Shown: one piece after another, positions 9,391-50,146 of the stretch
Position numbering within the stretch: the first letter of the stretch is position 1
Layout of the letters: the number at the start of each line of letters is the position of its first letter
Origin: a virus
Taxonomy: Duplodnaviria > Heunggongvirae > Uroviricota > Caudoviricetes
Length of the DNA stretch: 58,745 bases
Reading direction: 5' to 3' (one strand)
IMG/VR virus record: IMGVR_UViG_2531839662_000025
The notes under the pieces: generated by a model
Seen by the model: the letters and a program-made list of their open reading frames with translations, nothing else
Told to the model about the DNA's origin: nothing
The model's database searches: none
Program-made: the position numbers and the translations under genes

Positions 9391-9395
9391 ATATA

Positions 9396-22818: not shown

Positions 22819-23106
22819 GTTCTTTTTTCGCCCAATTATTTTCAAAAAAAATCCCGTGCACAAAAATTTGAGGAGGCGGTCGGTGTCCGGCAGGGACGGT
22901 TTCGTCCTGAAAACCTCCCCCACCCCCTCTGACAGCCTCACCAGCGATTGCGAAAACATTCCATGACCTCGCGGTCACGGTCGGTTAATCGCTTCGCTGT
23001 GGTGCGTTCTGTGCGCCCTGTCCTGTTAGCTTTGTGCCCTGTCTCCTGTGTCTTCCATAAGTCACGCTGCCTTATCAGTCCACGTATCAGCCTGTTTTGC
23101 TCCTGT

Positions 23107-25053: not shown

Positions 25054-25054
25054 A

Positions 25055-25615
25055 TCACAACCCCGCCAGTTCAGCCCAGCGATGACGATTATTTCCTGTC
25101 GGGCGTAATTCAGGGTGCTGTGCAAACAACGAACGGTGGGCAATCTCCACGCCGGATTCGGGATAAGCAGGCATCGACGTTATCGTGATTTCACGGAGTT
25201 CTGCGGCGGTAACAGTGCGCAGATACGGTTTTTGCGCGATATTCCACTCTTCGCATAATGCGCGAAAGCCAAAGCTCATTCCTGTAATGTCGCCACGCTC
25301 CACCAGCGTAAGCACATCTTTTCCAAGCTGGGTATCAGGCGGTGTCAGTTCAAAACGTAGCCCGGTGTTGTCCTCAGTCAGTACCAGTGTTCCGGATTTG
25401 GTGCGCCCCAGCAGTCGGGTATAGTCATGCTCATACAGGCAGCGCACATCATTACCCGCCGCCAGATAGTCAGCAAAAGCCCCCGGCGTGAACTGTTCGC
25501 GGAATTCGTCCCAGATAATTTCTGAAAGGCTGTTCCAGCGAACGGCATAACCCACCAGTTTTTTATCGCTGGCGGTCAGTTCAGATGTACGGATTTCAAA
25601 ATCGGTATTTTGCAT
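25055..25615 (-). CDS. prohead protease (HK97 family, satellite-encoded)
   Basis: Track ORF 25055-25831; likely start MQNTDFEI at 25615. Confidence 0.75.
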   Translation of the reverse strand: MQNTDFEIRTSELTASDKKLVGYAVRWNSLSEIIWDEFREQFTPGAFADYLAAGNDVRCLYEHDYTRLLGRTKSGTLVLTEDNTGLRFELTPPDTQLGKDVLTLVERGDITGMSFGFRALCEEWNIAQKPYLRTVTAAELREITITSMPAYPESGVEIAHRSLFAQHPELRPTGNNRHRWAELAGL

Positions 25616-25664
25616 CGGTGTACTCCATAAAGCTGAAAAAGGAGGCCGAAGCCCCCTTTGCTCA

Positions 25665-26810
25665 TTACTTGCCAGCCTGAATTTCCAGAATCTTGATGGC
25701 GTTCGAATCCACCACACCACCGCCCAGATATTTCTGGGTATAGATGTTAATGAATCCAGGTTCGCTGAAATCCAGACGGGTACGCGTACCGGTTTCATGG
25801 TCAACGATGAAATAACCGCGCTTAAAGTCACCTACTGCAATCACACCGTCCGGCATAAATTCCAGATATTCAACCGGAAGCCCCAGCAGAGAATCAGGAT
25901 CACCAGCCTGTAAACGATCGCGCCAGATGTAATCACCAGTGGCATTTTTCAGTTTTTGTGCGGAGGCGGCTGTATTTGAGTTCATCACCCATACAGCTTT
26001 TTTGCGGTACTTATTGCGCAGCGTAAATTTCAGGTCAATCAGCATGTCGGCGCTGAGACTGCCAGTAACTTTTTTCGTCTGGAGCGTACCGAAAGGACGG
26101 GTTTTGTCGTTATCCGCAGTGCGCGGAAAAGCCAGGAAACCTTTAGCTTTTTTCTCGCCATCACCGGAAACCAGATCCGTTTCTTCGGTATCAACGAAAG
26201 TGTCGCCAATTTCAGAAGATAACCAGCCCATAATATCGACTTCGGAAAAATCGATAATTTCCTGAGTGGTTTTCGGGTAAGCGTAGATCGGATACAGGCG
26301 GATACTGACTTCATTCAGTTTTGGTGTTGCCGTCTGGTTACGTGCCGCACCTTCTTCGCCGTGTTCAACGACCGCACCCCCGGCAGAAACCAATTGCTTA
26401 AATTCATTGCTGTGAATGGTTTTAACAGTACAGATTTTACGCATCACCGATTCATCAGAAAGCTGACGCATAATTTCTCTGTTCAGTTCCGGGATAACCG
26501 TATAACCACCATCAGCCGGGACACTGCCGGACAGGTTGCGGGTTTCCCCGGTCAGAATGTAAGAGCGCAGTTCGTCTTTGGTTATTTTCTCTTCGACGGA
26601 AACACCAGGCTGGTTACGTTCTTCATCAGCCACAGATTCGAGGCGGGAAATTTCTGTGTCGAGGGAATCGGCTTTTGCACGCAGTTCATCAAACTGTTTG
26701 CCCTCGTCATCGTTCAGGCTGCGGTTTTCACTGTCGGCTTTTTCCAGCAGGGATCGCATCTGGTTTTTCAGGGCGGTTTTTTGCTGGCGGAGTTCGATTA
26801 ATTTCTTCAT
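25665..26810 (-). CDS. major capsid protein (HK97 fold, satellite-encoded)
   Basis: 381-aa ORF with N-terminal coiled-coil; related in pattern to the host prophage MCP. Confidence 0.85.
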   Translation of the reverse strand: MKKLIELRQQKTALKNQMRSLLEKADSENRSLNDDEGKQFDELRAKADSLDTEISRLESVADEERNQPGVSVEEKITKDELRSYILTGETRNLSGSVPADGGYTVIPELNREIMRQLSDESVMRKICTVKTIHSNEFKQLVSAGGAVVEHGEEGAARNQTATPKLNEVSIRLYPIYAYPKTTQEIIDFSEVDIMGWLSSEIGDTFVDTEETDLVSGDGEKKAKGFLAFPRTADNDKTRPFGTLQTKKVTGSLSADMLIDLKFTLRNKYRKKAVWVMNSNTAASAQKLKNATGDYIWRDRLQAGDPDSLLGLPVEYLEFMPDGVIAVGDFKRGYFIVDHETGTRTRLDFSEPGFINIYTQKYLGGGVVDSNAIKILEIQAGK

Positions 26811-27104
26811 GAAGGTTTTCTCGTATTGGTTAAGATTCAGGACGTGAAACCAACACGGAGGGAGCGCCGCCCGACACTCTCGGCATCTCGCAGATCAACC
26901 CGGCATCGCGCAGGGGGTCAGGCGGCATTGTGGCGGCTCACGTCTGAGTGCCACACGCCAACATATACATAAAAATCAGTATGTAAACATCAGCCAGAAT
27001 CACCGAACAACCTGGAACAACCACGAACAAATAATTTACAAAACCTGAAAAAATAAATAAGCTGTTCCGTACATTTTCTGCTCGTCAATCAGGAGGAACG
27101 AACT

Positions 27105-27578
27105 ATGTCAGAAAATGAACTGAAAAAAGCAATGTTCATTCAGCAACGATTGCAGATTCTCCACCTTGGTAAACACTATGATGAGTTCAGCGATTCTTAC
27201 GTGTATGCCTGGGAGGCAGATGTTTATCCTTTCTTGCAGGATGGCGACGGAAGTATTCCTACTCGCCCACATGAAATTTACGAAGAGTTTTTCGGCACAT
27301 CTAAAAACAAAGCTAAAAAGATATACGATCGTCTGTGCAAAGCCTGGCACGACCGGGAGGCGCTCACATTCTATAAACTAGAAAGTGAATATGGTGTAAC
27401 AAGTAGCAGCATGCACGGATGGACACGAAGTGATTTACTTCACATTTGCCGCTATCTGTATCTTGAGGGGTGTTTCGATAAAGATTTCTGGGAAACATTA
27501 CTGGAAAACGGAAAATGCCCAAGCGAAGCACTTTACCTTAGCGATGAATTTAATCGCGATACAGAGATCGACTTCTAA
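27105..27578 (+). CDS. hypothetical protein (accessory cargo gene of the satellite)
   Basis: 157-aa ORF on the opposite strand to all flanking satellite genes, lower GC, own terminator; no family recognised. Confidence 0.6.
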   Translation: MSENELKKAMFIQQRLQILHLGKHYDEFSDSYVYAWEADVYPFLQDGDGSIPTRPHEIYEEFFGTSKNKAKKIYDRLCKAWHDREALTFYKLESEYGVTSSSMHGWTRSDLLHICRYLYLEGCFDKDFWETLLENGKCPSEALYLSDEFNRDTEIDF

Positions 27579-27580
27579 AA

Positions 27581-27614
27581 ATAATGGCCTGGAAAATACC
27601 AGGCCATTATTATT
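27581..27614. terminator. bidirectional rho-independent terminator
   Basis: 10-bp stem AATGGCCTGG/CCAGGCCATT with T/A runs on both sides, between convergent genes. Confidence 0.6.
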
Positions 27615-27902
27615 CTACCGTTTCACGGGATCACGCATTCTGCGCCTTATTTTCCACAGATATTCGATCATCGCTTCCACCTGCTCACGGTTGGTTGCGA
27701 AAATTTCCCCGGTCAGTGAGCTACGCAGAAAATCATGATGATCCACAAAAAATAACGCATCGGAAGAAAGCAGCCGGCGATATTTTTTTACTGTCGTGGT
27801 TTCCAGATCATCAAAACCATGAAACTTTTTATGTTGCTGAACTTCTTCAAATGTCACAGGCATGTTTCCTCCTGCTACCACGATACCAGAAACAGTTAAC
27901 AA
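27615..27902 (-). CDS. hypothetical protein
   Basis: Track ORF; likely start MPVTFEEV at 27863. Confidence 0.4.
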   Translation of the reverse strand: MLTVSGIVVAGGNMPVTFEEVQQHKKFHGFDDLETTTVKKYRRLLSSDALFFVDHHDFLRSSLTGEIFATNREQVEAMIEYLWKIRRRMRDPVKR

Positions 27903-28204
27903 CCGTTATCAATTATCCCCTTTTTTTTCGGGTAGTTCCTGAACATCTCACCGCCAGGTTTCTGTAAGCCCATCCCGGTATGTGTGCGGTTTATGGCCTC
28001 TTTCAGTATTCCGAAATTATCCGGTATGACTGGTTGGCGCGCTGCCTTACGGATACATTCCGCGCGACGCTTTGCCACCTGTTCGCGCTCCTTGTCAGTG
28101 CTCACCAGCCACATAACATCAGCCCAACGTGCCGCCGCTCTCCGGTACAGCCCTTTAGCCTCCAGTTCTTCCGCTTTGCTGTCTTTAATCATGCTGTACC
28201 TCAC
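27896..28204 (-). CDS. PerC-family transcriptional activator homolog
   Basis: About 100 aa containing AEELEAKGLYRRAAARWADVM, the PerC/Pch signature as I recall it. Confidence 0.55.
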   Translation of the reverse strand: MRYSMIKDSKAEELEAKGLYRRAAARWADVMWLVSTDKEREQVAKRRAECIRKAARQPVIPDNFGILKEAINRTHTGMGLQKPGGEMFRNYPKKKGIIDNGC

Positions 28205-28207
28205 TGC

Positions 28208-28633
28208 TTAAAACGGTATCCCGTCCCCGTACGGATCATCGTGCTGGCCTGTCTGTTGTTTTGCCCTGTTCAGTGCGTCAGTAGCCTGGCCCTGCTGGCC
28301 TTTTTTGCCGCCCGGTCGCGCCGTTCGCGCACTGATTACGCTGTCTGCGATGACCTGCCAGCCCTGCCGCATTTCGCCGTTCTGGCCTGTCCACTGGCTT
28401 ACCTGCATGTTACCCGCCACACTCACCAGTTCGCCTTTCTGGTGTTTTGCCAGTGCATCGGCCTGTCTGCCAAACGCCAGGACGGATAACCACATCGTCG
28501 CCGTTCCGTCATCTGCCTGGCTGCACGGCAGGGGAACCGCCATACTCGCCATAGCCATTTGTGTCCCCTTGCTGGTGGTCTTTAACTGCGGGTCAGCCAC
28601 CAGCCGCCCGTAAGCCGCTATCTGTGCTGTCAT
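28208..28633 (-). CDS. single-stranded DNA-binding protein-like
   Basis: 141-aa ORF with Gly/Gln-rich linker and acidic C-terminal tail ending DGIPF. Confidence 0.55.
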   Translation of the reverse strand: MTAQIAAYGRLVADPQLKTTSKGTQMAMASMAVPLPCSQADDGTATMWLSVLAFGRQADALAKHQKGELVSVAGNMQVSQWTGQNGEMRQGWQVIADSVISARTARPGGKKGQQGQATDALNRAKQQTGQHDDPYGDGIPF

Positions 28634-28696
28634 GCTGTCTGTTCTCCGGTTTTAACGTTGATTGTTACGCTTGTTTACACCCTTACGGTGAAATTC

Positions 28697-28820
28697 TGCG
28701 GGTTATAATCGCACTTTTGCGGGTTATAACTGCCGTTTTGCGGGTTACGTGCGGGTTATTGATTTCCTTTTTATTCATACAGTTAATGCACTTATACACA
28801 GGATAACCCGCATAACCCGC
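28697..28820. repeat. putative satellite replication origin: GCGGGTTAT iterons at 21-bp spacing plus inverted copies
   Basis: Direct copies at 28697, 28718, 28739, 28751; inverted at 28803, 28812; immediately downstream of primase. Confidence 0.65.
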
Positions 28821-28843
28821 AACTTTTCACCTCACACAGGGGG

Positions 28844-30964
28844 TTAATCTTCTGCCTCAGGCTGGAACATCAGCACGTAAAAAACATGCTGCTTCCCCCC
28901 AATTTTGCCGAGCGCCTTTTTCTTGTAACGGCGATCGTTACCCGCTTCCAGCATTCCGGCAGCACTCAACGCGCGGGCAAAGTGAGACGGATTAAATCCC
29001 TGTGCTATCTCACCCTCAAATACATGCGGGAACGTGTAAAAACGGAACTCGTCATCTTCGTTTCTGATACTCCCCTTTCTGTATCCGGCAAGCTCTTTAA
29101 TCGGTAAATCACGCTCGTCGGTGTTGGGCCACGGAAGGTATCTGCTGAATCCGAACGACGCTAAAAAAGCCTCTGCCTGTTCAACCATCTGTTTAAACTC
29201 CCTGTTACCCGTGCCGAACTCCTTCACCCAGGCATTAAAATTATGCTGAATGGCATCGCGGCACGCCTGAACATCCCAACCAGTAATATGGACGGAAAGC
29301 ACCAGCGCCGACTCCAGCATGGCGAATCGTTCCCCCACACGGTGAACCTGTTCGCCGTAACTCTCCGGTATCAGGTTGCGCCACCGTTCACGGCATGCCC
29401 TTACCGTATCCTTTGCCTCCTGCTGGTGGTCTGCCAGCCATTTAACCCATTCACGCCCCGCCGCCCCGTGATTTTCTGTCCAGGCATCCTTTAACGCGTC
29501 TGCGTGTGCCTTTCCGGTGCTGTATTCGTGAAACTGCGTGGCTTTTTCCATTGGCACGTTAAGCAGGCGGACAAGCTGCCCCGCCTTGACTTTTATCCCC
29601 TCCGTTTTGAGGAATGTCTCAACGTCCATTTCTCCGGTGCTGATTGCCACCGTGCGCCAGTGTTTGATCTCCCTGTTGCCGCCGTCCTTCGCCCCCTGTA
29701 ATTTCCCCGAACCGTTAAACAGCGTATAAGCCGACGTGGACACTTCCCGCGCGTTTCCGGCCTGACCTATTTCATCTAGGGGTAATAGCCCGTCATTGTG
29801 CGCCTCTGCCTCGTTGGCGATGCCTAACGCTGTACCGTACCAGGTCAGCCGTTGCGCGTCCGGCTCTCCCCATAAACTGGATGCGATGTTCTGTGTGGTG
29901 GTTTTCCCTGCCGATGACTGTTCGAAAAGATGTACCCCGAAGCCGTCAGCGCCCACCAGCCCGATTAATGGTGCAGATAACGATACCGCCACACCCAGCA
30001 TCATGGACGGATTACCACCAGCCAGCCGCGCAACGGTATCGCGCCAGCCCTCCGCCGTTCCTGCCACGGAATAACCATTAACAGCAGCCGTTTTTCCGGT
30101 AAACAGGACTGGCTTTTCGCAATCACCAATGACCGAACCGTCCGGCATGATGTACGCGCCAAAATGCCAGCCCGTTGTTGTGCTTAACTGCCATTCCTCA
30201 TGGTTTCCGCTTAACTGCATCCAGTCAGCCAGGATAGCCCTGTATTTGCCGTTGGTTGTCACGTTCAGGCCGTGGTCTTTCAGCAACCGCCAGCCGTCAC
30301 GGTCGCCAATGCCACCACATGGGATCGCCATTGTGATGACTTCATGGTTTGCTGGCTTTTTCCAGCGCATCACGCGGTAATGCTCTTTACCGATCGTCCC
30401 CGTTCCCAGTAGTTCAAGCGGAGAACATAACCACGTCTCAGGCCGGATAATTTCGCCTGACTGCTTGTCCACTTTTGGCGTTACCCAGAAAACACCATCG
30501 GCGCGGCTTTCAACGCGGGGCTTTAATTCATCATCGCCCTGGCTTTCTGTGATTTTTTTCTTTAAGGGCAACACCAGACTTTCCCCGCGCTCGTATTCGT
30601 CTTTCAGTCGGGCAAGCTGTGGTGTCCAGTCCTCCAGTAAATCGCCGTTCTCGTCACAAAAACAGGCTTCCTTAACACCAGCCACTGCCAGCAGGGTTTC
30701 AATCTGTAGCGCCAGTTTGTCATCCAGTTTTCCGGCACGTCTGACGATGGCGCGTGACCGACCATCATCCACAATACGCAGGTTTTCCAGATTACCCAGG
30801 TCACGCCGTCCGAGATAAACAGGTGGTATTTTGTCGCCGCGCTTTCTGGCTTCTCCGCCCTGCATGTAATGCTCTGCATGGCTGTATGCGTCATCCCCCG
30901 CAAAAATCACTGCATCCTCGCCTTTATCTTTCGGTAACAGTTTTACGTTCGGTGCCAGTTTCAT
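28844..30964 (-). CDS. primase/helicase (P4 alpha-like replication protein)
   Basis: 706-aa ORF with Walker-type NTPase region (SSAGKTT). Confidence 0.7.
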   Translation of the reverse strand: MKLAPNVKLLPKDKGEDAVIFAGDDAYSHAEHYMQGGEARKRGDKIPPVYLGRRDLGNLENLRIVDDGRSRAIVRRAGKLDDKLALQIETLLAVAGVKEACFCDENGDLLEDWTPQLARLKDEYERGESLVLPLKKKITESQGDDELKPRVESRADGVFWVTPKVDKQSGEIIRPETWLCSPLELLGTGTIGKEHYRVMRWKKPANHEVITMAIPCGGIGDRDGWRLLKDHGLNVTTNGKYRAILADWMQLSGNHEEWQLSTTTGWHFGAYIMPDGSVIGDCEKPVLFTGKTAAVNGYSVAGTAEGWRDTVARLAGGNPSMMLGVAVSLSAPLIGLVGADGFGVHLFEQSSAGKTTTQNIASSLWGEPDAQRLTWYGTALGIANEAEAHNDGLLPLDEIGQAGNAREVSTSAYTLFNGSGKLQGAKDGGNREIKHWRTVAISTGEMDVETFLKTEGIKVKAGQLVRLLNVPMEKATQFHEYSTGKAHADALKDAWTENHGAAGREWVKWLADHQQEAKDTVRACRERWRNLIPESYGEQVHRVGERFAMLESALVLSVHITGWDVQACRDAIQHNFNAWVKEFGTGNREFKQMVEQAEAFLASFGFSRYLPWPNTDERDLPIKELAGYRKGSIRNEDDEFRFYTFPHVFEGEIAQGFNPSHFARALSAAGMLEAGNDRRYKKKALGKIGGKQHVFYVLMFQPEAED

Positions 30965-31260
30965 TTTTTACCTCTGGATGCGCTGAGCATGCTTTTTATT
31001 TTCTTAATATTTTCCCGTGCTTTTTCCCTGCTGGTGGGCTTACCGCGTGTTGCGTTCTGTACCAGAGAAAAATCACGCCGGAACTGATAAACAGGCATCA
31101 CGCAGTCATAGCCGTACCCATCACGGCGGTAAGTAACACACCGTCCCGCCACGCTTTTAATCGTTACAGTGCCGCCGTATTTATCTTTGAAAATATCGCC
31201 GGGGCGGATTTCAGGCCGAGCGGGGCCGCTGGCAGTAAAGCCAGAATTTTTCTGTTTCAT
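30961..31260 (-). CDS. hypothetical protein
   Basis: 99-aa ORF overlapping primase start. Confidence 0.45.
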   Translation of the reverse strand: MKQKNSGFTASGPARPEIRPGDIFKDKYGGTVTIKSVAGRCVTYRRDGYGYDCVMPVYQFRRDFSLVQNATRGKPTSREKARENIKKIKSMLSASRGKK

Positions 31261-31265
31261 GGTTT

Positions 31266-31493
31266 TTATTCCGCGTTTATTTTTTTATCGTGAATTTCGA
31301 TCGCTTTATTTAATTCGACGATTACCGTATCGAGTAATGAAATAAACGCACCAGCAAGATTAGATTCACGTTCATCTTCCGGCGCATCACTTAAACCATC
31401 AAGCCAGATAAGCAATATTTGCCGCAAACATTCACTGTTAGTCAGTGCGTTTTCTGCATGGCTCATTGATTTTAAATAACTGTCATCATGCAT
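31266..31493 (-). CDS. hypothetical protein
   Basis: 75-aa acidic ORF. Confidence 0.4.
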   Translation of the reverse strand: MHDDSYLKSMSHAENALTNSECLRQILLIWLDGLSDAPEDERESNLAGAFISLLDTVIVELNKAIEIHDKKINAE

Positions 31494-31689
31494 GGCTCAC
31501 CCCCTGACGAATACGGGCGGCGAATACCATCACACAGCCATCAGGAGATTGCTGGCGTGCTTCCTGTTCGCTGGTGGCCTCGATGTGAATTACGCGCGGT
31601 TGTGCCGTACTCAGGGCGATAAAACGCCAGATATATTTATTCAGGTTGTGCGAGTCCCGCCCTTGCGGGTGTGTGGTATGATTTAACAT
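31486..31689 (-). CDS. hypothetical small protein (67 aa)
   Basis: C-terminal part of the 357-aa track ORF; begins MLNHTTHP just downstream of the divergent promoter region. Confidence 0.35.
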   Translation of the reverse strand: MLNHTTHPQGRDSHNLNKYIWRFIALSTAQPRVIHIEATSEQEARQQSPDGCVMVFAARIRQGVSHA

Positions 31690-31766
31690 AGCTACCTCGA
31701 TACTCTTGCTATCGTTGGTGGTTAGACGCCCTGCATGTGTTGCGAGCACTGCGGGGCGTTGCTTAA

Positions 31767-31867
31767 TTTGAGTGACAAAACTCAAACTGTGCGCACAGAT
31801 TAAAATCATGTGTGCGCACATGTCAATACTTAACATCTCATTTTTTTTGCTGTATTGTGTGCGCCCA
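31767..31867. promoter_or_regulatory. divergent regulatory region with palindromic operator-like sites (TGTGCGCACA)
   Basis: Perfect palindromes at 31788-31797 and 31808-31821, half-site at 31856-31867, inverted repeat at 31767-31786. Confidence 0.5.
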
Positions 31868-31894
31868 TAAAGTCCATTTAAGTGAGGTGCATCA

Positions 31895-32092
31895 ATGTCT
31901 AGCGGTAACACAAACAACAAATCAGCAAAGAAAAATATTCGATTCCCACATGAGCTTATAGATGGGATTGATGCCAGCGTTGAACAAGAAAAATTAACTA
32001 ATCCTAGTGCTAATTTTTCCGCATGGGTCTTAGATGCCTGTGGACGCAAATTAAAATATGAACAGCGCCGGAAGGCCAAAGAATCAGAATAA
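31895..32092 (+). CDS. small putative DNA-binding regulator of the satellite
   Basis: 65-aa ORF transcribed away from the operator-containing promoter region. Confidence 0.4.
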   Translation: MSSGNTNNKSAKKNIRFPHELIDGIDASVEQEKLTNPSANFSAWVLDACGRKLKYEQRRKAKESE

Positions 32093-32134
32093 TCACTATC
32101 AGCGCCGTGGTGTGAGTAACTACGGCGCATTGCT

Positions 32135-32323
32135 ATGCAGGACAACACAATGACCGATAAAGAATTGACCAAAACATTATCACCGACACGGAAAAGACGG
32201 CGCAGAAAGATAGAGCATGAATCAGAAAGATTCGCACCTTGTTCGTTTGCTCTTGAGAAATTCCTTAAAGAGCGCAGGAAAAAGCTCTCGTTGCAAACCC
32301 TGGAACGAACCAAATCTGACTGA
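32135..32323 (+). CDS. small basic hypothetical protein
   Basis: 62-aa ORF followed by a plus-strand terminator. Confidence 0.35.
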   Translation: MQDNTMTDKELTKTLSPTRKRRRRKIEHESERFAPCSFALEKFLKERRKKLSLQTLERTKSD

Positions 32324-32389
32324 TCACATTGCCCACCAGCCGCAAATGTGGCATTGTTGGTGATGCTTTTGTTTTCCCTTGTTCCCACT

Positions 32390-32419
32390 GGCGACCCTTT
32401 TGCGGTCGCCTTTGTTTTG
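32390..32419 (+). terminator. rho-independent terminator
   Basis: GGCGACC/GGTCGCC stem followed by a T-run. Confidence 0.55.
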
Positions 32420-32703
32420 CCTGTTATCCGGCAATAGTGGCGCTTCGTCACCTGTCTGATATAATTCCACAGCTTATATTCATTTTTTGCGCAGTAGGTT
32501 AATTGTTCGCAAGGGCGCTCCGGCAACGGGGCGCTTTTTGTTTTTACCCACCAGCACAATAAAAATCTTCATTTTCCATTTTTGTAAAATTTCATGCTTT
32601 CCGGACGACTGGTCATATGTCATTTTTTAGCAGAAGATTTTGCCTTGCTGGTGGGTAGCTTCCCGGTCAACACGATGTACCGTATAATCAACACCGCGTG
32701 TGG

Positions 32704-33282
32704 TTACTGAATACGCTCACCAAAGTAAAACTCAGGCTGGTATTCACGTATCAGCCTTTTTTCTTCTTCCTCCAGCTCACGCTTTTTGCGCTTACATGCC
32801 TGTAGCTCCCTCCCCTTCTCACTGGCACTTATCTGGTATTGCTCTTTGCGGCGGGAAAAATCCTGTAATGCGCCCCACGGGATACCATAAGCCCCCGTTT
32901 TTCTGATACCCGGTATCACATTTCTGAATACCCAGTTACTGAAACGATGAGCAAATGTGCCAGGCGTCGTTGCTTTGCGGCTGCGGGCTATTAGTTTGTA
33001 GAAACCTGACTCGGAGATAATGCTCATATTCTGATTTCCTCCGGGGGTGTAAGTTAAATTTACTCCCTTTTCGTCATCATCAAGCATCTGCAACGCCGTA
33101 CGCGAATTGGTCAGTTCCAGCGCAGCACAAACATCCTTTGCAACAAACCACGGATCGCCGTTTAGATACACCACACGAACATCCACGCCATCAAAGCGCA
33201 GAACGACCAGATCACGAATATCACAGAATTTTTTCACATGACGTGCGTCACCCTTGCCCGTCACGGCAATATTTTTATTCAT
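32704..33282 (-). CDS. Bro-N domain protein (antirepressor-like)
   Basis: 192-aa ORF with Bro-N-like N-terminal region. Confidence 0.55.
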   Translation of the reverse strand: MNKNIAVTGKGDARHVKKFCDIRDLVVLRFDGVDVRVVYLNGDPWFVAKDVCAALELTNSRTALQMLDDDEKGVNLTYTPGGNQNMSIISESGFYKLIARSRKATTPGTFAHRFSNWVFRNVIPGIRKTGAYGIPWGALQDFSRRKEQYQISASEKGRELQACKRKKRELEEEEKRLIREYQPEFYFGERIQ

Positions 33283-33301
33283 TGCTTTTTACCTCACATA
33301 C

Positions 33302-33328
33302 AAAAAACCCCGCATTGCGTGGTGCGGG
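33302..33328 (-). terminator. rho-independent terminator
   Basis: 7-bp GC-rich stem followed by U-run on minus strand, after the AlpA-like gene. Confidence 0.6.
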
Positions 33329-33339
33329 GTTGTCGGTAA

Positions 33340-33618
33340 TTACTTATTGGCGTTTTTGTATGGGCTGTTTACTTCCTTTACTCCTGGCGGATGCATAACC
33401 CACCAGAGCACATCAGAGAGCAACCAGGAAACAGACACTTTCCCTAAATGAGCACGAGCAGGAAATGCTCCCTCCTGTTCAAGTACCCAACGTCTGCTTC
33501 TTGAAAGCCCGGTACGATTGGCACACTCATGTTCGCGTATACGGCGATCATACGGTTCGCCATGATCTTTCAGAATCTGAATGCGTTCTTCGGGTGTAGG
33601 ATAAATAAATTTTTGCAT
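33340..33618 (-). CDS. AlpA-family regulator / excisionase-like
   Basis: Track ORF 33340-33648; likely start MQKFIYP at 33618; small HTH protein. Confidence 0.55.
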   Translation of the reverse strand: MQKFIYPTPEERIQILKDHGEPYDRRIREHECANRTGLSRSRRWVLEQEGAFPARAHLGKVSVSWLLSDVLWWVMHPPGVKEVNSPYKNANK

Positions 33619-33681
33619 AAAAATATCACCTATAAAAAAACCCGCCAAAAGACGGGTTGATTATATCTCATTTAATTTAGC

Positions 33682-33915
33682 TCAGGGTTTCCATTCACCT
33701 TTTACCCATTCCAGCACCTCAGATAAGCGCCAGACTTTTGTTTGTGGGCCAATACATATTTTTCGTGGAAATTTTCCTTCCTTTTCAAGTAACGATCTGT
33801 GTCTCCTGCCAAGAGCGGTTAACCATGCACATTCATCTTCCTTAATCATCCTGTCGATTGTTTCATCATTTTCAAGTTCTTCACGCGTAACTATTTGAAT
33901 CATTACTGTCACCAC
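33682..33915 (-). CDS. AlpA-family regulator / excisionase-like
   Basis: 77-aa HTH ORF next to integrase. Confidence 0.55.
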   Translation of the reverse strand: MVTVMIQIVTREELENDETIDRMIKEDECAWLTALGRRHRSLLEKEGKFPRKICIGPQTKVWRLSEVLEWVKGEWKP

Positions 33916-35104
33916 TAATTTGCTTATTCAGATAGTCGTACCACCAGTTCATAGCTTCTTTTTTTCTGTCCATATACTGGCTTCTGTTATAAACCCCGGC
34001 AACACCGCCTAATGTGTGCCCAAGCAACTGTTCAACCACATTATGTTCAAAACCATGATCACTTAGTTTTGTGGCAAACACTCTTCGCATATCATGCGCC
34101 GTCCATTTCTCCGAGTGTTTCATCCTTTTCCATGTCTTACCGATAGTTACGCTTGCCGTACACTGACGCATATCAAACCCAATCACATTTTCTTTGTTAC
34201 CTGTTATTTTTTTTAACGTAACTAACCAGTTAAACATGCCATCAGGAATCGGTCTGATTATTTCCCTGCCATTTTTGCTATGATCAGCGGGAACGCGCCA
34301 TAATTTCTTATCAAAATCCCACTCTACCCAGGACGACAGTAATACTTCTGACAGTCGACAACCAAAAACTACCAGGAAACGTAAAATAATTCGGTTTTCA
34401 TATGATAATTCGTGATTGTCATAATCAGTATTAATACTTCGCCATAAATCTCTGATTTCATCATCTGTTAAAACCCTGCTTCTTCGCGCAGACTTTTTTC
34501 CCACATCACAGACCTCAAGATCATCAATTTCATGACTAATCGCGTATTTTCTTACCCTACAAAATTTAAGCGCCTGTTTTGATATACGCAACAAAGCTCC
34601 GGCCTGTACAGGTGCTACTTTTTTTATTTTGTCAAAACACTTAATCCACATAGATATAGAGCAATCACTAAGTGGTACATGACCAATCACCGGATAAATA
34701 TGTTTACCAAAGCACTGCCTGATATGTTCTGCTCCCCTACGCTTATCCATTGCATAATTATCAAGCCAGTATTCAAGTGCCTCACGAACGGTAACAGGTT
34801 GCAAGGTGGCTTCCCGTTCAATTTTTATCTGAATCCGTGGATCTCTGCCCTCCGCAAGCCAGGTTCGACACTGATCGCGCATCTCTCTCGCTGATTTGAG
34901 ACTCAGATCAGGATATTTTCCAAGTGTCAGCCAGATGGGCGCGGTTCCCCTTCCCGCCAGTCTGTAAAAGAAAACAAAACTAACACATCCGTATTTACTG
35001 ACCCGTACCGAAAGCCCGTTACCATCAGCGATGGTTTCCTGCCTCTCACTCCTGCGTCCAAGCAGGGAACGAAGTTTTTTATCGCTCAGTTTGTTTAGCG
35101 CCAT
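33881..35104 (-). CDS. tyrosine integrase (P4-type)
   Basis: Track ORF 33881-35140; likely start MALNKLSDKKL at 35104; P4-type N-terminal arm-binding pattern and C-terminal catalytic region. Confidence 0.8.
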   Translation of the reverse strand: MALNKLSDKKLRSLLGRRSERQETIADGNGLSVRVSKYGCVSFVFFYRLAGRGTAPIWLTLGKYPDLSLKSAREMRDQCRTWLAEGRDPRIQIKIEREATLQPVTVREALEYWLDNYAMDKRRGAEHIRQCFGKHIYPVIGHVPLSDCSISMWIKCFDKIKKVAPVQAGALLRISKQALKFCRVRKYAISHEIDDLEVCDVGKKSARRSRVLTDDEIRDLWRSINTDYDNHELSYENRIILRFLVVFGCRLSEVLLSSWVEWDFDKKLWRVPADHSKNGREIIRPIPDGMFNWLVTLKKITGNKENVIGFDMRQCTASVTIGKTWKRMKHSEKWTAHDMRRVFATKLSDHGFEHNVVEQLLGHTLGGVAGVYNRSQYMDRKKEAMNWWYDYLNKQISGDSNDSNSYA

Positions 35105-40270: not shown

Positions 40271-40345
<75 letters not shown>

Positions 40346-40348
40346 ATA

Positions 40349-40424
<76 letters not shown>

Positions 40425-44278: not shown

Positions 44279-44551
44279 TTACCTCCAGATCCGTTGCTGG
44301 AATGTGCGGGACGGACGCGGTGGGCGTTCAGAGTAAGGCAGTCTGACTGAGATGATCCAGTGTCGGAAGTCGAGGCTGAGGTCTTTCTGAAACTCGTAAC
44401 CACGTCTGCGGTAGTTCTGAATCAGCCATTCGGCCTGTTCTTCAGTGCAGGGGTCATGCTGATACCAGTCATATTTGAATGTATGAGAACGCCGCCCGTG
44501 CCTGCTGGCAAGGTCGGTATCAGAATTGTGATGTTTGGTATTGTGCGCCAT
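44279..44551 (-). CDS. hypothetical protein (Rem-like position)
   Basis: Track ORF 44279-44677; likely start MAHNTKHH at 44551. Confidence 0.4.
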   Translation of the reverse strand: MAHNTKHHNSDTDLASRHGRRSHTFKYDWYQHDPCTEEQAEWLIQNYRRRGYEFQKDLSLDFRHWIISVRLPYSERPPRPSRTFQQRIWR

Positions 44552-44620
44552 CGGTTTTCTCTGCTGGCGCAGCAGGTGCCAGTTGTTCAGGCTGGCCTGT
44601 GGATTGTAAACCAGAATACG

Positions 44621-44648
44621 TAAAACAAAAAACCCGCCGAAGCGGGTT
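44621..44648 (-). terminator. rho-independent terminator 3' of hok
   Basis: AACCCGC/GCGGGTT stem with U-run on minus strand. Confidence 0.55.
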
Positions 44649-44717
44649 AAGCGCGGGTGCGTTGAGGATGCCGACACATCAGAGGTGGCGGGAGATTACT
44701 CTCCCGCCTGGTCACTC

Positions 44718-44870
44718 TTACTTCTCAGATTCGTAGTCCACGAAGACAGCAACCTCCGTCTGGCCGGTTCGGATTCGTACCTCACAGAGGTCTTTCCTCG
44801 TTACCAGTGCCGTCACTATGACGGTTAAACAGATGACGATCAGGGCGATTAACATCGCCTTTTGCTGCTT
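44718..44870 (-). CDS. hok: Hok/Gef-family type I toxin
   Basis: 50-aa MKQQKAMLIALIVICLTVIVTALVTRKDLCEVRIRTGQTEVAVF; track ORF extends in frame upstream to 44930. Confidence 0.85.
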   Translation of the reverse strand, partial: KQQKAMLIALIVICLTVIVTALVTRKDLCEVRIRTGQTEVAVFVDYESEK

Positions 44871-45132
44871 CATAGCCTGCTTCTCCTTGCCTTTCGGCAC
44901 GTAAGAGGCTAACCTAGATTTGCCGTTCATAGATTGAGCCTCAGATTAATGTTAAGCGTCTTGCAGGACGCGTAATGTTAACTGGGGCTTTTCTCTATCT
45001 GCCTTTTGGTGTTCATGCCTGAGACAGATAGCCTCAAGCACCCGCAGTCATTCTACTTAACTAAGATTTCCCCGCAAACCGTTTTTGTCCGGCACAGTAA
45101 ATATCCAACTAAACCAATGGCGTTCGCTGTAT

Positions 45133-45351
45133 TTACCGCCAGTATTCAATGCACATGACCGCCATGAACACCCCTAAAAAAAGGGCATTTATATATCCAA
45201 ATATTAATATCAAAACATCAACTTTTTCCATATACCTTGCTGTGAAGATGATGGGCATACATGATACGAACAACCAGAACGCAACAAACAAAAACTGCAA
45301 TGCGTTTTTCATTATTCCTCCTACAATCAATGTGCAATTACATTTAAACAC
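45133..45351 (-). CDS. small membrane protein (moron)
   Basis: 72-aa hydrophobic ORF in an AT-rich segment. Confidence 0.4.
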   Translation of the reverse strand: MFKCNCTLIVGGIMKNALQFLFVAFWLFVSCMPIIFTARYMEKVDVLILIFGYINALFLGVFMAVMCIEYWR

Positions 45352-47331: not shown

Positions 47332-47433
47332 TCCATCACCTCCTGAAAATCTCCCTGATAGAACGCCAGTACACGCTGCATAACCTCACTCTGACGGCAC
47401 TCACGGCAAATTATGTTCTGGTGTCGGTCGTAG

Positions 47434-47441
47434 GGTTGTGC
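47434..47441. repeat. 8-bp target site duplication GGTTGTGC (left)
   Basis: Identical 8-mer at 50147-50154, immediately outside the IS termini. Confidence 0.75.
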
Positions 47442-47471
47442 GTAAGCGGCTCGCCAGAACCGTATTGATAT

Positions 47472-49043
47472 TTACTGAGAGGTCAGATCAACTTTCCAGG
47501 GCAACAGATCGCGTACCCGGTTTGCCGGCCAATCCTGGATATGCTCAATGACGTAACGCAGCCATTTTTCTGGTTCCACATTGTTCAGACGGCATGTGCC
47601 GATCAGCGAGTACAACACCGCCGCATGTTCGCCACCGCTGTCGGAACCCGCGAAGAGCCAGTTTTTCCGGCCTACGGCCACTCCCCGTAAGGCGTTCTCT
47701 GCGATGTTGTTGTCGATTTCCACCCAGCCATTACTGCAGTACACGTTCAGGGCCTCCCACTGTTTCAGCAGGTATGCGAACGCTTTTGCCGTATCCGAGT
47801 GACGCGACAGTGTTTTCATCTGTTCCTGTATCCAGTCATACAGTGACTGCATCAGTGGAGCCGCTCTGGCTTTTCTTGCTGCCAGACGCTGTTCTGCTGA
47901 ACATCCCCGGACTTCTGCCTCGATGACATACAGTTCACCGATACGCTGCAGGGCTTCCGTGGTGATGTCGGTGGGCACTCTTGCATGCACATCGTGGATT
48001 TTTCTCCGGGCATGGGCCATACACGCGGCTTCCGTTATTCTGCCGGATTCGTATAACGCCCGGTAACCACCGTAAGCATCTGCCTGAAGCACACCGCTGT
48101 AACCGGCCAGGTGATTCTGTGGATGGATACCTTTCCGGTCCGGGCTGTACGCGAACCAGACCGCCGGGGGCATCTGTGAACCGGCGTTACGGTCATCACG
48201 GACATAGACCCACAGCCGGGCAGTTCTTGTTTTACCACTGCCCGGCTCCTGGACCGGAACGGGGATATCATCCGCATGGACTTTACCGGGCATCAGCACA
48301 TACTGGCGCAGGACGTCATACAGCGGCTCCAGCAGTTCAGCAACGGCACCTGTCCAGCGCCCCAGCGTGGCGCGGCTCAGCTCCACGCCCTGGCGACGGT
48401 ATATTTCTGACTGGCGGTATAACGGCAGATGGTCTGCATATTTCCCGGTAACAACATGGGCCAGAAGCCCCGCTCCGGCATAACTGCGTGCAATGGGTTT
48501 TGAAGGTACTGTTGCCTGCACGATATGGTCGCACCGACAACAGGCCAGTTTCGGACGTTGTGTTTCGATAACCTTAAAGGCGCTGCTGATAAGCTCCAGT
48601 TGCTCTGACACATCACACCCCAGAGGACTGAGGTCACCACCACAGGCCGGGCAGCATTCCTCTTCCGGCCGGATGACCCGGGTTTCACGGGGAAGTGAGG
48701 CCGGTAACGGTTTACGGGCTGAAGACTGGCGCAGGGCGGATGGCAGTACCGGGTCATATTGCTCACCCAGCGTTTCCGCCATTTCTTCCTGAAGTGCGCT
48801 GATTCGCTCCTGTGCTTCCTGTATCTGCCGTTCGGTTTTAGCGCGAAGTTTTTCTGAGCTTTTACCGAACTGCATGCGCTGCAGTTTCGCAACCAGCGCC
48901 TTCAGCCGGTTGATTTCGGAAGCATAAGCCGCCACCCGCTGTGAGAGCAGGCGGTTGTATTTCGCCATCTGGCGGATGGTGTCCTGTTGCGTCTGCAACA
49001 GTGCCCGCAGGCGGGCATTCTCATGAGCAAGTGAGGTGTCCAT
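47472..49043 (-). CDS. tnpC: IS66-family transposase TnpC
   Basis: 523-aa ORF with N-terminal leucine zipper, CCPACGG zinc motif and DDE-type core. Confidence 0.9.
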
Positions 49044-49062
49044 ATCCTCACTTTACAACGGG

Positions 49063-49411
49063 TTATATGCGGATGCCAGCGCGTTCCGTTCGTTTCGGGT
49101 GCTTCCAGTCGATGCCTTCGAGAAGCATGGACAACTGAGCCGGAGTAAGGTGAACCTTTCCATCGCGGGTGACCGGCCAGACGAAGCGGCCCCGCGTCCA
49201 GGCGTTTGGTGAAGAGGCACAGTCCGTCACTGTCAGCCCACAGCACTTTTATCTGGTCACCCCGGCGTCCGCGGAAGATGAACAGATGCCCGGAGAACGG
49301 GTCATCCTTCAGGACGTTCTGAACTTTTGAGGCCAGGCCGTTAAAGCCATTTCGCATATCGGTGATACCGGCAACCAGCCAGATACGCGAACCGGCAGGG
49401 AGAGATATCAT
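49063..49411 (-). pseudogene. tnpB: IS66-family TnpB, apparent +1 frameshift in a G-run
   Basis: Track ORF 48902-49411 leaves the expected frame after KRL; the shifted frame gives RFVWPVTRDGKVHLTPAQLSMLLEGIDWKHPKRTERAGIRI and stops just before tnpC. Confidence 0.5.
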
Positions 49412-50061
49412 CAGTGGCTGCTCCCTTTCATTTCGCGGATAAGTGTCTGTAATAACGCCGGTGTCAGTTCACCTTTCAGCCTGAGAGTTCCGGCCGGCAG
49501 AACCAGCTCGCAGCACAGACTGTCTGGCAGTGTATTTATCTGTTCAGGTATCTGCACTGGTGCCGGGATTTTATTATCCGGCTCCGGAGTTAACGTCACG
49601 GGAAGTAGCGATGTTTCATGTTCGCCGGGCGGTTGCAGGCCACCGTTACGCCAGAGATGCCGCCAGTTAAAGAGCAGGTTATCGTTAATTCCATTCTCTC
49701 GAGCTATTTGTGCGACACAGGCACCGGGTAAAAGAGTTTGCTGAACCAGTCTCCATTTAAACTCCGGTGAAAATCGGTTCCGGCGGGGTTTCTCTGCTTT
49801 CACAGGCTGAGTCACGGTCGGGGCTGAAGGGTATCGCCCCGGGAAAAGAGCCCGGGCCAGTTGCCCGCAGGAATATTCACCGGAAAGAGGCCAGTCAGTG
49901 AATACCTGGTGAAATCGCCTCACCAGAGAAAAAATGGTGGTTTTGCTGACACCGGTCTGCGCAGAAATGCGCGGGTACGACAGTGACTCGTCAAATCTCA
50001 GCTGTAGCACACGCAGGATCAATTCCGGATTGTCTGCCAGTACCGCTTTTCGTGCATTCAT
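49411..50061 (-). CDS. tnpA: IS66-family accessory protein TnpA (orf1)
   Basis: 216-aa HTH ORF at the start of the IS operon. Confidence 0.7.
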   Translation of the reverse strand: MNARKAVLADNPELILRVLQLRFDESLSYPRISAQTGVSKTTIFSLVRRFHQVFTDWPLSGEYSCGQLARALFPGRYPSAPTVTQPVKAEKPRRNRFSPEFKWRLVQQTLLPGACVAQIARENGINDNLLFNWRHLWRNGGLQPPGEHETSLLPVTLTPEPDNKIPAPVQIPEQINTLPDSLCCELVLPAGTLRLKGELTPALLQTLIREMKGSSH

Positions 50062-50146
50062 CTTAAATGTCCCTTTACTGCGAAAATGGACATTAGTATC
50101 GGAAACAGGAAAGGGAGGCGAAAGACGGTTTAAATGAGACGGTTAC

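Follow-up and report, generated by a model that had tools for sequence, protein, structure and literature searches.

Does the small Hok/Gef-type toxin gene seen in a lambda-like prophage of Escherichia coli belong to a complete type I toxin-antitoxin module and, if so, where on the opposite strand does its antisense RNA lie? The DNA in question is a tailed-phage record of 58,745 nucleotides (IMG/VR IMGVR_UViG_2531839662_000025), referred to here in its entirety as the window. The original prediction, made by eye, flagged a hok-type toxin locus at 44621-44950, an interval that does hold the locus but cuts off its 5' third (the hok mRNA starts near 45043, with a -10 element at 45055-45050). The hok/mok/sok locus occupies ~455 bp of the minus strand, from 45077 to 44623, and so exceeds the flagged interval. 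It is an ordinary copy of the already known hok/sok system, carried by a lambda-like E. coli prophage, and is very probably a structurally complete module of the hokD/hokW subfamily, located in the nin-equivalent region of a probably defective lambdoid prophage. The minus-strand features claimed for the locus were all found, far above chance expectation, and the locus carries no interrupting IS element or rearrangement, in contrast to K-12 hokD.

The toxin gene, its mok frame and the prophage setting

The toxin gene lies on the minus strand at 44718-44873, with its ATG at 44873-44871 and a Shine-Dalgarno (SD) sequence, AGGAG, at 44887-44883, and encodes a peptide of 51 amino acids (MKQQKAMLIALIVICLTVIVTALVTRKDLCEVRIRTGQTEVAVFVDYESEK), not the 50 first counted; annotated HokW and HokD have the same length. 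Its place in the Hok/Gef family, which the original prediction took to be clear, is borne out by Pfam PF01848 (HOK_GEF; E=1.1e-22, 42 of 42 profile positions covered) and by a 112-bit match of its leader to Rfam RF01794. Against the Hok-family model NF007279 of NCBIfam the protein scores 53.6 bits, which is under the curated cut-off of 73 for that model and well above that of Pfam. It is a small Hok/Gef-family membrane peptide of ~50 amino acids with an N-terminal hydrophobic helix, an identical protein is encoded by 15 other scanned loci, and 42 of 45 diverse Hok homologs, HokD included, were toxic when tested (10.1101/2025.08.07.668861).

Upstream of hok the reading frame stays open, as had been noticed, but for 19 codons instead of 20. 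This extension corresponds to the mok frame (44718-44930, minus strand; 70 codons in the list of open reading frames, in frame with hok), which begins at the AUG at 44930-44928 and has its own SD sequence, GAGG (44942-44939), 8 nt 5' of the ATG. Its counterparts carry the annotations mokW in phage 933W and mokC in K-12, and mok lies in frame upstream of hok in 136 of 198 homologous loci, a +1-frame ORF being present in 9. By analogy, the in-frame extension would act as a regulatory frame, to which translation of hok is proposed to be coupled.

Mapping by blastn relates the window to a prophage of E. coli UMNF18, with 98-100% identity overall and complete identity across the 501 bp queried around hok. 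In RefSeq, the gene order of this prophage runs from cI-like and cro-like genes through ydaT, the replication genes and small ORFs to hok, and from there through a 90-aa ORF, DUF968 (confirmed by Pfam), RusA, DUF1133, tRNAs and holin/endolysin genes to terminase. The toxin locus was predicted to be embedded in the nin region, and it does lie between the replication genes and the DUF968-RusA-DUF1133-lysis genes, co-oriented with DUF968-rusA; this is a nin-equivalent placement, between immunity/replication and late-activator/lysis genes and near a Holliday-junction resolvase gene. Viral-contig data indicate that members of the hokD/hokW subfamily usually sit in this prophage position, 5' of DUF968 and rusA. 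From its position (compare ydfT in Qin), DUF1133 may be a Q-like antiterminator. For the 90-aa ORF that follows hok, neither Pfam nor NCBIfam gave a match, and it bears no similarity to K-12 Rem. Annotation of the UMNF18 host prophage includes an IS679 insertion, a split terL and several frameshifted genes, so that the element looks defective; the sequences on either side of the element inserted in terL were searched for att-like direct repeats and have a single 11-mer in common, which is not decisive.

Ends and long-range pairing of the hok mRNA

The predicted full-length mok-hok mRNA of ~420 nt would run on the minus strand from G45043 to the terminator U-run (44623-45043), and these limits coincide with a block conserved among 90 close relatives, at ~45046-44650. 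A putative hok/mok promoter can be read at 45050-45077 of the minus strand, with a -35 element TTGCGG (45077-45072), a 16-nt spacer and a -10 element TAGAAT (45055-45050). All 53 homologous loci have a TAnnnT -10 upstream of the mRNA 5' end, versus 25% in shuffles, and in 46 of these loci 6-7 nt separate the two; the -35 lacks conservation among close relatives, so only the -10 of this promoter is well supported. At the 3' end, a terminator scan found an intrinsic terminator at 44623-44648 on the minus strand, AACCCGC-UUCG-GCGGGUU followed by UUUUUGUUUU. Its stem (44648-44631) begins 69 nt past the hok stop codon and leads into the U-run, in agreement with the terminator noticed ~70 bp downstream, and K-12 Qin hokD has retained the same terminator sequence.

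Folding of the full-length hok RNA gives a minimum free energy (MFE) of -169.5 kcal/mol (z=-6.8). In this fold the tac element at the mRNA 5' end (GGGUGCUUGAGGC; 45031-45043, minus strand) pairs with the fbi element (CCUCAACGCACCC; 44655-44667, minus strand), which is predicted to lock the full-length mRNA. A tac-like 5' end is present in 53 of 56 non-redundant loci, and in 52 of these 53 the segment that pairs best with the cognate 5' end is located 35-71 nt past the stop codon. Folding of long upstream/downstream duplexes was too noisy (median z -1.7) and was replaced by a 13-nt test of cognate versus non-cognate pairs, in which the cognate tac-fbi duplexes of the 53 loci averaged -21.6 kcal/mol and the non-cognate ones -16.9 kcal/mol (p=3e-20). 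Thus the tac-fbi pairing co-varies across 53 non-redundant loci.

The elements ucb, or anti-SD (AAGCCCC; 44984-44990, minus strand; Rfam consensus helix 1), and dcb (AGCCUC; 44905-44910, minus strand; Rfam consensus helix 3) were placed by the definitions of PMC9841398. The partner of ucb is the mok SD in the closed form, as seen in the full-length MFE, and would be tac in the open form, while dcb, which overlaps the Sok -10 on the opposite strand, would pair with the mok SD once the RNA is 3'-trimmed and open; a published Sok promoter mutation falls within dcb (PMC9841398). The locus sequence fits the Rfam consensus structure, which corresponds to the open form with its tac/ucb and mok SD/dcb stems. 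Removal of the 3' end lowers the cost of this form from +11.1 to +4.1 kcal/mol, and the MFE of the 3'-trimmed RNA shows no spontaneous switch to it. A long-range MFE helix, CUCUUAC/GUAAGAG, was considered as ucb/dcb and ruled out by the element definitions of PMC9841398. As a separate observation, GTAAG overlaps the stop codon in 44 of 56 loci, versus 5% in shuffles, and its partner lies inside the search motif.

Strand and position of the Sok antisense RNA

The predicted Sok antisense RNA, ~72 nt long, lies on the plus strand at 44922-44993. The original prediction expected such an RNA on this strand around 44870-44950; the strand was right and the coordinates were off by ~50 nt. Sok consists of a single-stranded 5' tail (44922-44935), a long hairpin (44936-44990) and a U-run at the 3' end, folds with -31.2 kcal/mol (z=-5.0), and covers by complementarity both the mok SD and the mok AUG. 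The annotated sokW of 933W maps to 44922-44992, and the curated 5' end of sokC agrees with the predicted start within 1 nt. The design of -10, 5' tail, hairpin and U-run is kept in 55 of 56 loci.

The predicted Sok promoter (44887-44915, plus strand) combines a -35 element TTGCCT (44887-44892), a 17-nt spacer and a -10 element TAACCT (44910-44915), and this stretch is base-for-base identical to the sokW promoter of 933W, in which -10 mutations abolish antitoxin activity (PMC8621323). TAnnnT occurs at the Sok -10 spacing in 55 of 56 loci. A check for a plus-strand promoter had been proposed, and a generic sigma-70 consensus scan of 44400-45300 returned none on either strand; it missed the Sok promoter because only 7 of 12 consensus positions match. 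Given this 7-of-12 match, the similar Sok promoter pair TTGCGC/TATCCT of an R1-like locus and the sokW promoter validated by mutation, the null result of the scan is not evidence of absence. Both the hok/mok and the Sok promoter are thus predicted from homology and conservation.

The strand of the antitoxin merits particular care, since Rfam RF01794, the 'sok antitoxin' family, matches the minus strand at 45043-44868 with 112.4 bits (E=8.6e-25, model positions 1-157 of 157; gathering threshold 59 bits). Together with the empty plus-strand promoter scan, this match might suggest a small RNA co-oriented with hok at 45043-44868 and no plus-strand antisense RNA, a reading we consider extremely improbable. 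The match extends from the 5' end of the hok mRNA to the hok start codon, and therefore the model describes the hok mRNA leader, not Sok. RF01794 likewise falls on the hok strand in K-12 (118 bits for the hokC leader) and in 933W, opposite the curated sokC and the annotated sokW, and after calibration on these two systems, hokC/sokC and hokW/sokW, the match was rejected as Sok itself. Because RF01794 reports the hok-mRNA strand over a 176-nt span, annotation pipelines that copy it misplace the antitoxin strand.

In all 50 homologous loci compared, moreover, the plus-strand version of the Sok hairpin is the more stable, by ~10 kcal/mol, with 3.8 G·U pairs on that strand versus 0.02 on the hok strand. 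Covariation within Sok amounts to 27 double-change cells, where shuffled data give 9.2 and none of 500 shuffles reaches the observed value; since MAFFT aligns the inner helix of the Sok RNAs out of register, register-robust pairs alone were counted. The original prediction had also called for a covariance-model search for a Sok-like RNA. A Sok-oriented model built from distant homologs has a single significant match in the window, which covers 44922-44993 of the plus strand (25 bits, E ~1e-4). Thus, every computational test available places Sok on the plus strand at 44922-44993, and the antisense promoter and RNA on which the original prediction hinged are both found, the one identical to that of sokW and the other recovered by the covariance model.

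Known relatives, proposed mechanism and role

The closest known system is hokW-mokW-sokW of Stx2 phage 933W and Sakai prophage Sp5 (AF125520), with 93% nucleotide identity over 440 bp. The two loci have identical Sok promoters, Sok hairpins, tac, fbi and hok SD elements and most of hok in common, and are alike in having a Hok of 51 aa, a Mok of 70 aa and a Sok of ~71-72 nt. They differ in the Sok 5' tail and mok codons 2-5 (MNGKS in the window, MLNTC in 933W), in the Hok C-terminus, which reads VDYESEK in the window allele, and in the terminator sequence of the window locus, which is absent from 933W. The 933W locus also lies near attR, on the strand opposite the late genes, whereas that of the window is nin-equivalent and co-oriented with DUF968-rusA. 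Experimental work has shown that hokW-sokW is a functional pair whose toxicity is counteracted by sokW under its own promoter (Takada et al. 2021, PMC8621323), that it depends partly on RNase III and Hfq, and that it is active at its native locus and alters phage yield (PMC8621323).

K-12 Qin hokD (relF) belongs to the same subfamily, is near-identical to the window in hok, 3' UTR, fbi and terminator, and has a similar neighbourhood of hok, small ORF, DUF968 gene (ydfU) and putative Q. It is, however, truncated to the stretch from hok SD to terminator, relBE-side sequence having replaced the promoter, tac, ucb, mok start and sok, whereas the window locus is complete. The plasmid-stabilising hok/mok/sok of R1 has the same order of tac, ucb, mok SD, mok, dcb/Psok, hok SD, hok, fbi and terminator, and its Sok resembles that of the window in the 5' tail, the hairpin clamped by GCCUC/GGGGC and the U-run; the motif TAGCCTCTTAC-N10-GCAAGGAG is also common to both (R1-like locus L122). 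R1 and the prophage-borne window locus have ~53% nucleotide identity over the locus, HokW and R1 Hok are 44% identical (PMC8621323), and Sok is 72 nt in the window against 64 nt in R1 because its hairpin is longer. In K-12 hokC(gef)/mokC/sokC, mok is in frame and the curated sokC shares 9 nt with the mok start, just the overlap predicted in the window, but SokC is shorter, at 59 nt, and the context is chromosomal, not prophage. An insertion element is reported to have inactivated the K-12 hokC copy (PMC12214031), and in the database record IS186 lies directly beside the locus.

The R1 and hokW literature provides the basis for a proposed mechanism, in which processing, RNase III cleavage, toxicity, editing and biological role would follow these precedents. 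A weak promoter would give rise to a stable hok mRNA of ~420 nt, whose 5' tac pairs with the 3' fbi and whose ucb sequesters the mok SD, so that the closed mRNA would permit neither translation nor Sok binding. Slow 3' trimming would remove fbi, allowing tac/ucb and mok SD/dcb to pair and exposing the mok start region, on which the unstable Sok, transcribed from the opposite strand, could dock via its single-stranded 5' tail. By lying over the mok SD and AUG, Sok would block translation of mok and of the coupled hok and mark the duplex for RNase III. Were the supply of Sok to stop, through loss of the element or a shut-off of transcription such as prophage induction, the trimmed mRNA would be translated and the 51-aa Hok would enter the inner membrane and depolarise or lyse the cell. 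TadA editing of Tyr47 to Cys is probably also required for full toxicity.

A candidate TadA A-to-I site is the heptamer CUACGAA at 44730-44736 on the minus strand, which contains the Tyr47 codon UAC (44735-44733) and is predicted to form a 7-nt hairpin loop. The heptamer is identical to the anticodon loop of E. coli tRNA-Arg(ACG) and to the hokB Tyr29 site, and elsewhere such a tRNA-identical loop has been reported for the heavily edited hokB site alone; K-12 hokD instead has UUACGAA. All 36 Tyr codons at the equivalent position in non-redundant loci read TACG. Editing at this position is published for hokC, hokD and hokE (PMC5630033, PMC12214031), and in K-12 hokD is inefficient, at ~6% (PMC12214031). 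Cys30 of Hok is hard-coded, and a second periplasmic cysteine could arise by editing of Tyr47, for which the sequence requirement is present. TadA editing may therefore act as an efficient gate on the toxicity of the prophage Hok, unlike in K-12 hokD.

Variation within the prophage hokD/hokW subfamily is confined to one stretch, the Sok 5' recognition tail, which is also mok codons 2-5; the 90 close relatives have near-zero diversity elsewhere. The tail comes in ~8 discrete variants with a strong predicted preference for the cognate partner (-20 versus -8 kcal/mol), and these variants may represent orthogonal specificity classes, by which hok/sok prophages could coexist in one cell, their antitoxins giving no cross-protection. 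That both ideas hold jointly, orthogonal tail classes together with efficient TadA gating of prophage Hok toxicity, is a tentative proposition about which we are more doubtful than confident.

Anatomy of this kind need not imply activity. Intact chromosomal hokA (E. coli C), hokB (K-12) and hokC (ECOR24) gave no post-segregational killing, according to the summary in a preprint (10.1101/2025.08.07.668861), and intact anatomy is therefore no guarantee of function. The window locus could likewise be physiologically silent, transcribed but releasing too little Hok, a hitch-hiker in a decaying prophage, as the apparently defective state of the UMNF18 element and the low editing of K-12 hokD might suggest. 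We nevertheless judge silence to be quite improbable. The hokW-sokW system, with its identical promoter stretch, is active in its native setting and changes phage yield, and the editing loop of the window allele is a perfect tRNA-Arg mimic; the conservation of all regulatory elements, the family-wide compensatory changes and the near-zero diversity outside the tail also argue for ongoing selection. A module of the same mechanism might instead have been selected for abortive-infection defence of the lysogen, and not for prophage maintenance or help in lysis. R1 hok/sok on a high-copy plasmid lowers T4 plating and plaque size (work cited in PMC8621323), and hok is ~four-fold enriched in prophages, which are often carriers of defence genes (10.1101/2025.08.07.668861). 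The same survey, however, found no enrichment of hok near defence systems, the sole direct test of a prophage hok/sok showed that the module favoured release of its own phage (PMC8621323), and the window holds nothing bearing on the selected role; a defensive role is thus unlikely.

The preferred reading, a structurally complete hok/mok/sok module, leaves current understanding of hok/sok unchallenged. As the complete counterpart of the truncated K-12 hokD, in the standard prophage position of the subfamily, the locus offers a reasonable native model for the role of hok/sok in maintenance, lysis timing and phage exclusion. RefSeq marks the Hok CDS alone at this locus, as a Hok/Gef family protein, and PGAP names its close relatives hokD; to that single CDS the present annotation adds mok, Sok, both predicted promoters, tac, ucb, dcb, fbi, the terminator and the candidate editing site.

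The hok toxin frame and the strand of RF01794

The toxin is encoded on the minus strand, where reading of 44600-45100 reveals a 70-aa mok-hok open reading frame extending from an ATG at 44930 to a stop codon at 44718. Residues 25-66 match the Pfam Hok/Gef domain from end to end (E=1.1e-22), and an internal ATG at 44873, preceded by an AGGAG motif, gives a 51-aa Hok peptide, as long as HokW of phage 933W and HokD of E. coli K-12 are in their annotations. The original prediction of a 50-aa toxin with 20 further upstream codons was therefore right about the frame and its extension but wrong in the count, which is 51 aa plus 19 codons. The terminator placed about 70 bp downstream of the toxin is present, as a minus-strand stem at 44648-44631 followed by a U-run, beginning 69 nt past the stop codon. 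The flagged interval, 44621-44950, thus reflects a real though slightly miscounted observation that left out the 5' third of the locus.

When the whole window was scanned against Rfam at the gathering threshold, one relevant match emerged, RF01794 ('sok'; 112 bits, E=8.6e-25), at 45043-44868 on the minus strand, that is, the hok strand, with its end on the hok start codon. Read literally as Sok, this match would mean a 176-nt RNA on the wrong strand, a reading excluded by calibrating the orientation of the model on two records in which hok and sok are independently annotated. In the stretch fetched from K-12, hokC is on the minus and curated sokC on the plus strand, while in 933W hokW and sokW are on opposed strands; RF01794 falls on the hok strand in both (118 and 113.5 bits, respectively). 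RF01794 thus models the leader of the hok mRNA, running from the 5' end of that mRNA as far as the hok AUG; it does not represent Sok read in the Sok direction, and automated annotation derived from it ('sok antitoxin') misplaces Sok in strand and length. This strand caveat, together with exact coordinates for Sok and the regulatory elements, is the useful output of the analysis.

The predicted Sok antisense RNA

With hokW-mokW-sokW of 933W the locus shares 93% identity, and the annotated sokW, carried over through the alignment, maps to 44922-44992 on the plus strand. Upstream lie TTGCCT (44887-44892), a 17-nt spacer and TAACCT (44910-44915), followed after 6 nt by G44922, the predicted start, which agrees within 1 nt with the curated start of K-12 sokC. 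The promoter agrees with the consensus at only 7 of 12 positions, and the corresponding TTGCGC/TATCCT pair of an R1-like locus scores no better. Promoter prediction on the plus strand by a generic sigma-70 scan came up empty at the Sok locus; the assignment rests on a stretch identical to that of sokW, in which mutation of the -10 element abolishes antitoxin function (PMC8621323). In its fold (-31.2 kcal/mol, z=-5.0), the predicted 72-nt Sok leaves 9-14 nt single-stranded as a 5' tail ahead of a long hairpin, and a U-run follows. By sequence, Sok can pair with the Shine-Dalgarno sequence (SD) and AUG of mok and not with those of hok, which fits control of hok via mok translation.

Homologous loci were collected by scanning species-representative genomes and viral contigs with the conserved motif TAGCCTCTTAC-N10-GCAAGGAG, present once in the window. 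The scan yielded 198 complete loci in which the Hok-like ORF measures 45-56 aa, and removal of redundancy left 56 with 49-88% identity to the window. On the antisense strand, all but one of these (55/56) possess an identically spaced TAnnnT, a 5' tail with a median of 12 nt, a hairpin clamped by GCCUC/GGGGC and a U-run; the median Sok length is 55 nt, with 64 nt at the R1-like locus. In 50 of 50 loci the Sok strand forms a more stable hairpin than the hok strand does (mean -21.5 versus -11.6 kcal/mol), with 3.8 G·U pairs per hairpin versus 0.02, a strand-specific signature because G·U becomes a C·A mismatch on the complement. In an alignment of 37 distant Sok sequences, from which the window's subfamily was left out, 89% of cells pair, falling to at most 62% when the 3' partners are slid, and 27 cells are changed on both sides, as compared to 9.2 in shuffles (the observed value was reached in 0 of 500). 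A covariance model built from this alignment in the Sok orientation finds exactly one significant match in the 58.7-kb window, on the plus strand at 44922-44993 (25 bits, E ~1e-4), at full length with a 22-nt loop insertion. The covariance-model search proposed originally thus gives a single plus-strand answer, and the expected plus-strand Sok-type RNA is borne out by sokW mapping, conservation and the model, albeit at 44922-44993 and not at the guessed 44870-44950.

Structure, variation and proposed role of the hok mRNA

The RF01794 match begins at G45043, 6 nt downstream of TAGAAT (45055-45050). A TAnnnT precedes the mRNA 5' end in all 53 loci where that end is recognisable, usually with a gap of 6-7 nt (25% in shuffles); no conservation of a hok -35 element was seen among close relatives. 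The full-length RNA (45043 to ~44624) has a minimum free energy (MFE) of -169.5 kcal/mol (z=-6.8), and in this fold its 5' end, GGGUGCUUGAGG, pairs with CCUCAACGCACCC at 44667-44655, corresponding to the tac-fbi closure that defines hok mRNAs (PMC9841398). In 52 of the 53 loci the cognate 13-nt 5' end finds its best partner 35-71 nt past the stop codon, cognate duplexes average -21.6 and non-cognate ones -16.9 kcal/mol (Mann-Whitney p=3e-20), and compensatory tac-fbi pairs are obvious, such as GGGCGCUUGAGA with UCUCAAGCGCCC. The remaining minus-strand elements, named after PMC9841398, are ucb (44990-44984), the mok SD (44942-44939), the mok AUG (44930-44928), dcb (44910-44905, under the Sok -10) and the hok SD (44887-44883). 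The Rfam consensus structure corresponds to the open form, with tac/ucb and mok SD/dcb pairing; enforcing it costs +11.1 kcal/mol in the full-length RNA and +4.1 once the 3' end is removed, the direction that the model predicts, and in folding predictions the open form is not the MFE of the 3'-trimmed RNA.

Close relatives (90 unique sequences with identities of 80% or more) show almost no diversity between ~45046 and ~44650, in agreement with the predicted hok transcript, and a steep rise outside this span. No IS element or rearrangement was found inside the hok/sok locus. K-12 hokD, of the Qin prophage, is alignable only from the hok SD to the terminator, everything upstream having been replaced; thus the window carries the complete form of a locus truncated in K-12.

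The only internal diversity hot-spot among the close relatives is 44914-44943, covering nucleotides 1-14 of the Sok 5' tail and mok codons 2-5, and differences among their Mok peptides are confined to residues 2-5. Thirteen distinct tails occur, about eight of which are common, and they differ at a median of 5 of 14 nt. Duplexes between tail and target are predicted to average -20 kcal/mol when cognate and -7.9 when non-cognate; for the variant in the window, the prediction is -21.0 with its own target and -1.3 to -9.1 with the others. The tail variants may therefore represent specificity classes that limit cross-talk between hok/sok copies of co-resident prophages.

Hok of the window has Cys30 and, at residue 47, Tyr. 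The Tyr47 codon lies inside the heptamer CUACGAA (44730-44736, minus strand), predicted to occupy a 7-nt hairpin loop and identical to the anticodon loop of E. coli tRNA-Arg(ACG) and to the highly edited Tyr29 site of hokB, whereas K-12 hokD and hokC have UUACGAA. In the non-redundant set, Tyr codons at the corresponding position occur as TACG in 36 of 36 cases, while the 20 hard-coded Cys codons vary. The loop match and the invariant TACG suggest that TadA recodes Tyr to Cys efficiently in this allele. TadA editing at the equivalent position of hokC, hokD and hokE is published (PMC5630033, PMC12214031); the perfect mimicry of the tRNA-Arg loop in this allele is the only new point.

The original finding holds and is well accounted for, and its locus is part of a thoroughly characterised system. 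The hok/sok anatomy was tested here in sequence, and for processing, RNase III cleavage and toxicity the account follows published work (PMC9841398, PMC8621323); the molecular mechanism would be that of plasmid R1 and hokW. In the hokW-sokW system, sokW RNA disappears upon mitomycin C induction, HokW is produced in dependence on RecA and phage yield is doubled (PMC8621323). Since hok of the window points the same way as the early-right genes, transcripts that run on from the early promoter once the prophage is induced would be sense to hok and would converge on the Sok promoter, and Sok might plausibly be lost in this way. A locus that is intact but silent stays a rival, given that intact chromosomal hok loci have failed to produce post-segregational killing (10.1101/2025.08.07.668861), but it is judged improbable.

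Prophage context

E. coli UMNF18 matches the 501 bp around the locus at 100% identity, and the whole window is 98-100% identical to the UMNF18 prophage, with some indels and one divergent block. This block, 9353-10543, has no megablast alignment to the UMNF18 prophage between flanks of 98-99.5% identity, which argues that the window derives from a related strain and not from the same assembly; its offset places it in the tail module, probably in the tape-measure/DNA-circularization region. The UMNF18 gene order begins with integrase, exonuclease, dicB, cI-like, cro-like, ydaT and replication genes (with an IS679 insertion), continues with small ORFs, hok, a 90-aa ORF, DUF968, RusA and DUF1133, and ends with a methyltransferase pseudogene, tRNA-Thr, tRNA-Gly, lysis genes and terminase, so that the description of hok as embedded in the nin region is a fair one. 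Eight places in UMNF18 match the locus.

Of 5426 complete E. coli genomes, 4933 contain a match to the locus, as do 79 phage records; hok has been reported in almost 80% of available Enterobacteriaceae genomes, with roughly four-fold enrichment in prophages (10.1101/2025.08.07.668861). Downstream of the viral-contig loci with enough sequence (n=73), the 90-aa ORF is found in 60, DUF968 in 57 and RusA in 47, and a position upstream of 90-aa ORF-DUF968-RusA is standard for the subfamily; in species-representative genomes, 79 of 85 hok loci have none of the three downstream. The 90-aa ORF itself (44279-44551, minus strand, directly downstream of the hok terminator) is matched by neither Pfam nor NCBIfam and does not resemble K-12 Rem, and its recurrence in the viral contigs makes it a conserved unknown partner of the hok-DUF968-rusA arrangement.

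Several other features of the prophage were observed. An IS66-family element (IS679; tnpA, tnpB and transposase) sits at ~47400-50100, where it interrupts a DUF977 gene in the replication region. In UMNF18, genes for replication, the tail terminator and the baseplate are annotated as frameshifted, and an internal stop is recorded in a methyltransferase gene. These lesions make a defective prophage probable, although some may be sequencing errors in the UMNF18 assembly. Two adjacent tRNA genes, annotated as tRNA-Thr and tRNA-Gly (40274-40424, minus strand), are flanked by the DNA-methyltransferase pseudogene on one side and the lysis cassette on the other. Stx phages have their own tRNA genes at this position; the annotation of the related UMNF18 prophage contains no stx genes.

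In the UMNF18 annotation, the large terminase gene of the prophage is split by a ~15-kb element (window ~20800-35100), with flanking terL fragments at ~36303-35276 and ~20312-19569 and only one shared 11-mer at the junctions. The element encodes an integrase, HTH regulators, BRO-N, Icd-like, DUF927 primase-like, SSB and PerC proteins, and also major capsid protein, prohead protease, portal, head-tail connector, HNH, TerS and TerL, with no tail genes. From this gene content, it looks like a capsid-forming, PICI-like phage satellite integrated in the prophage terL.
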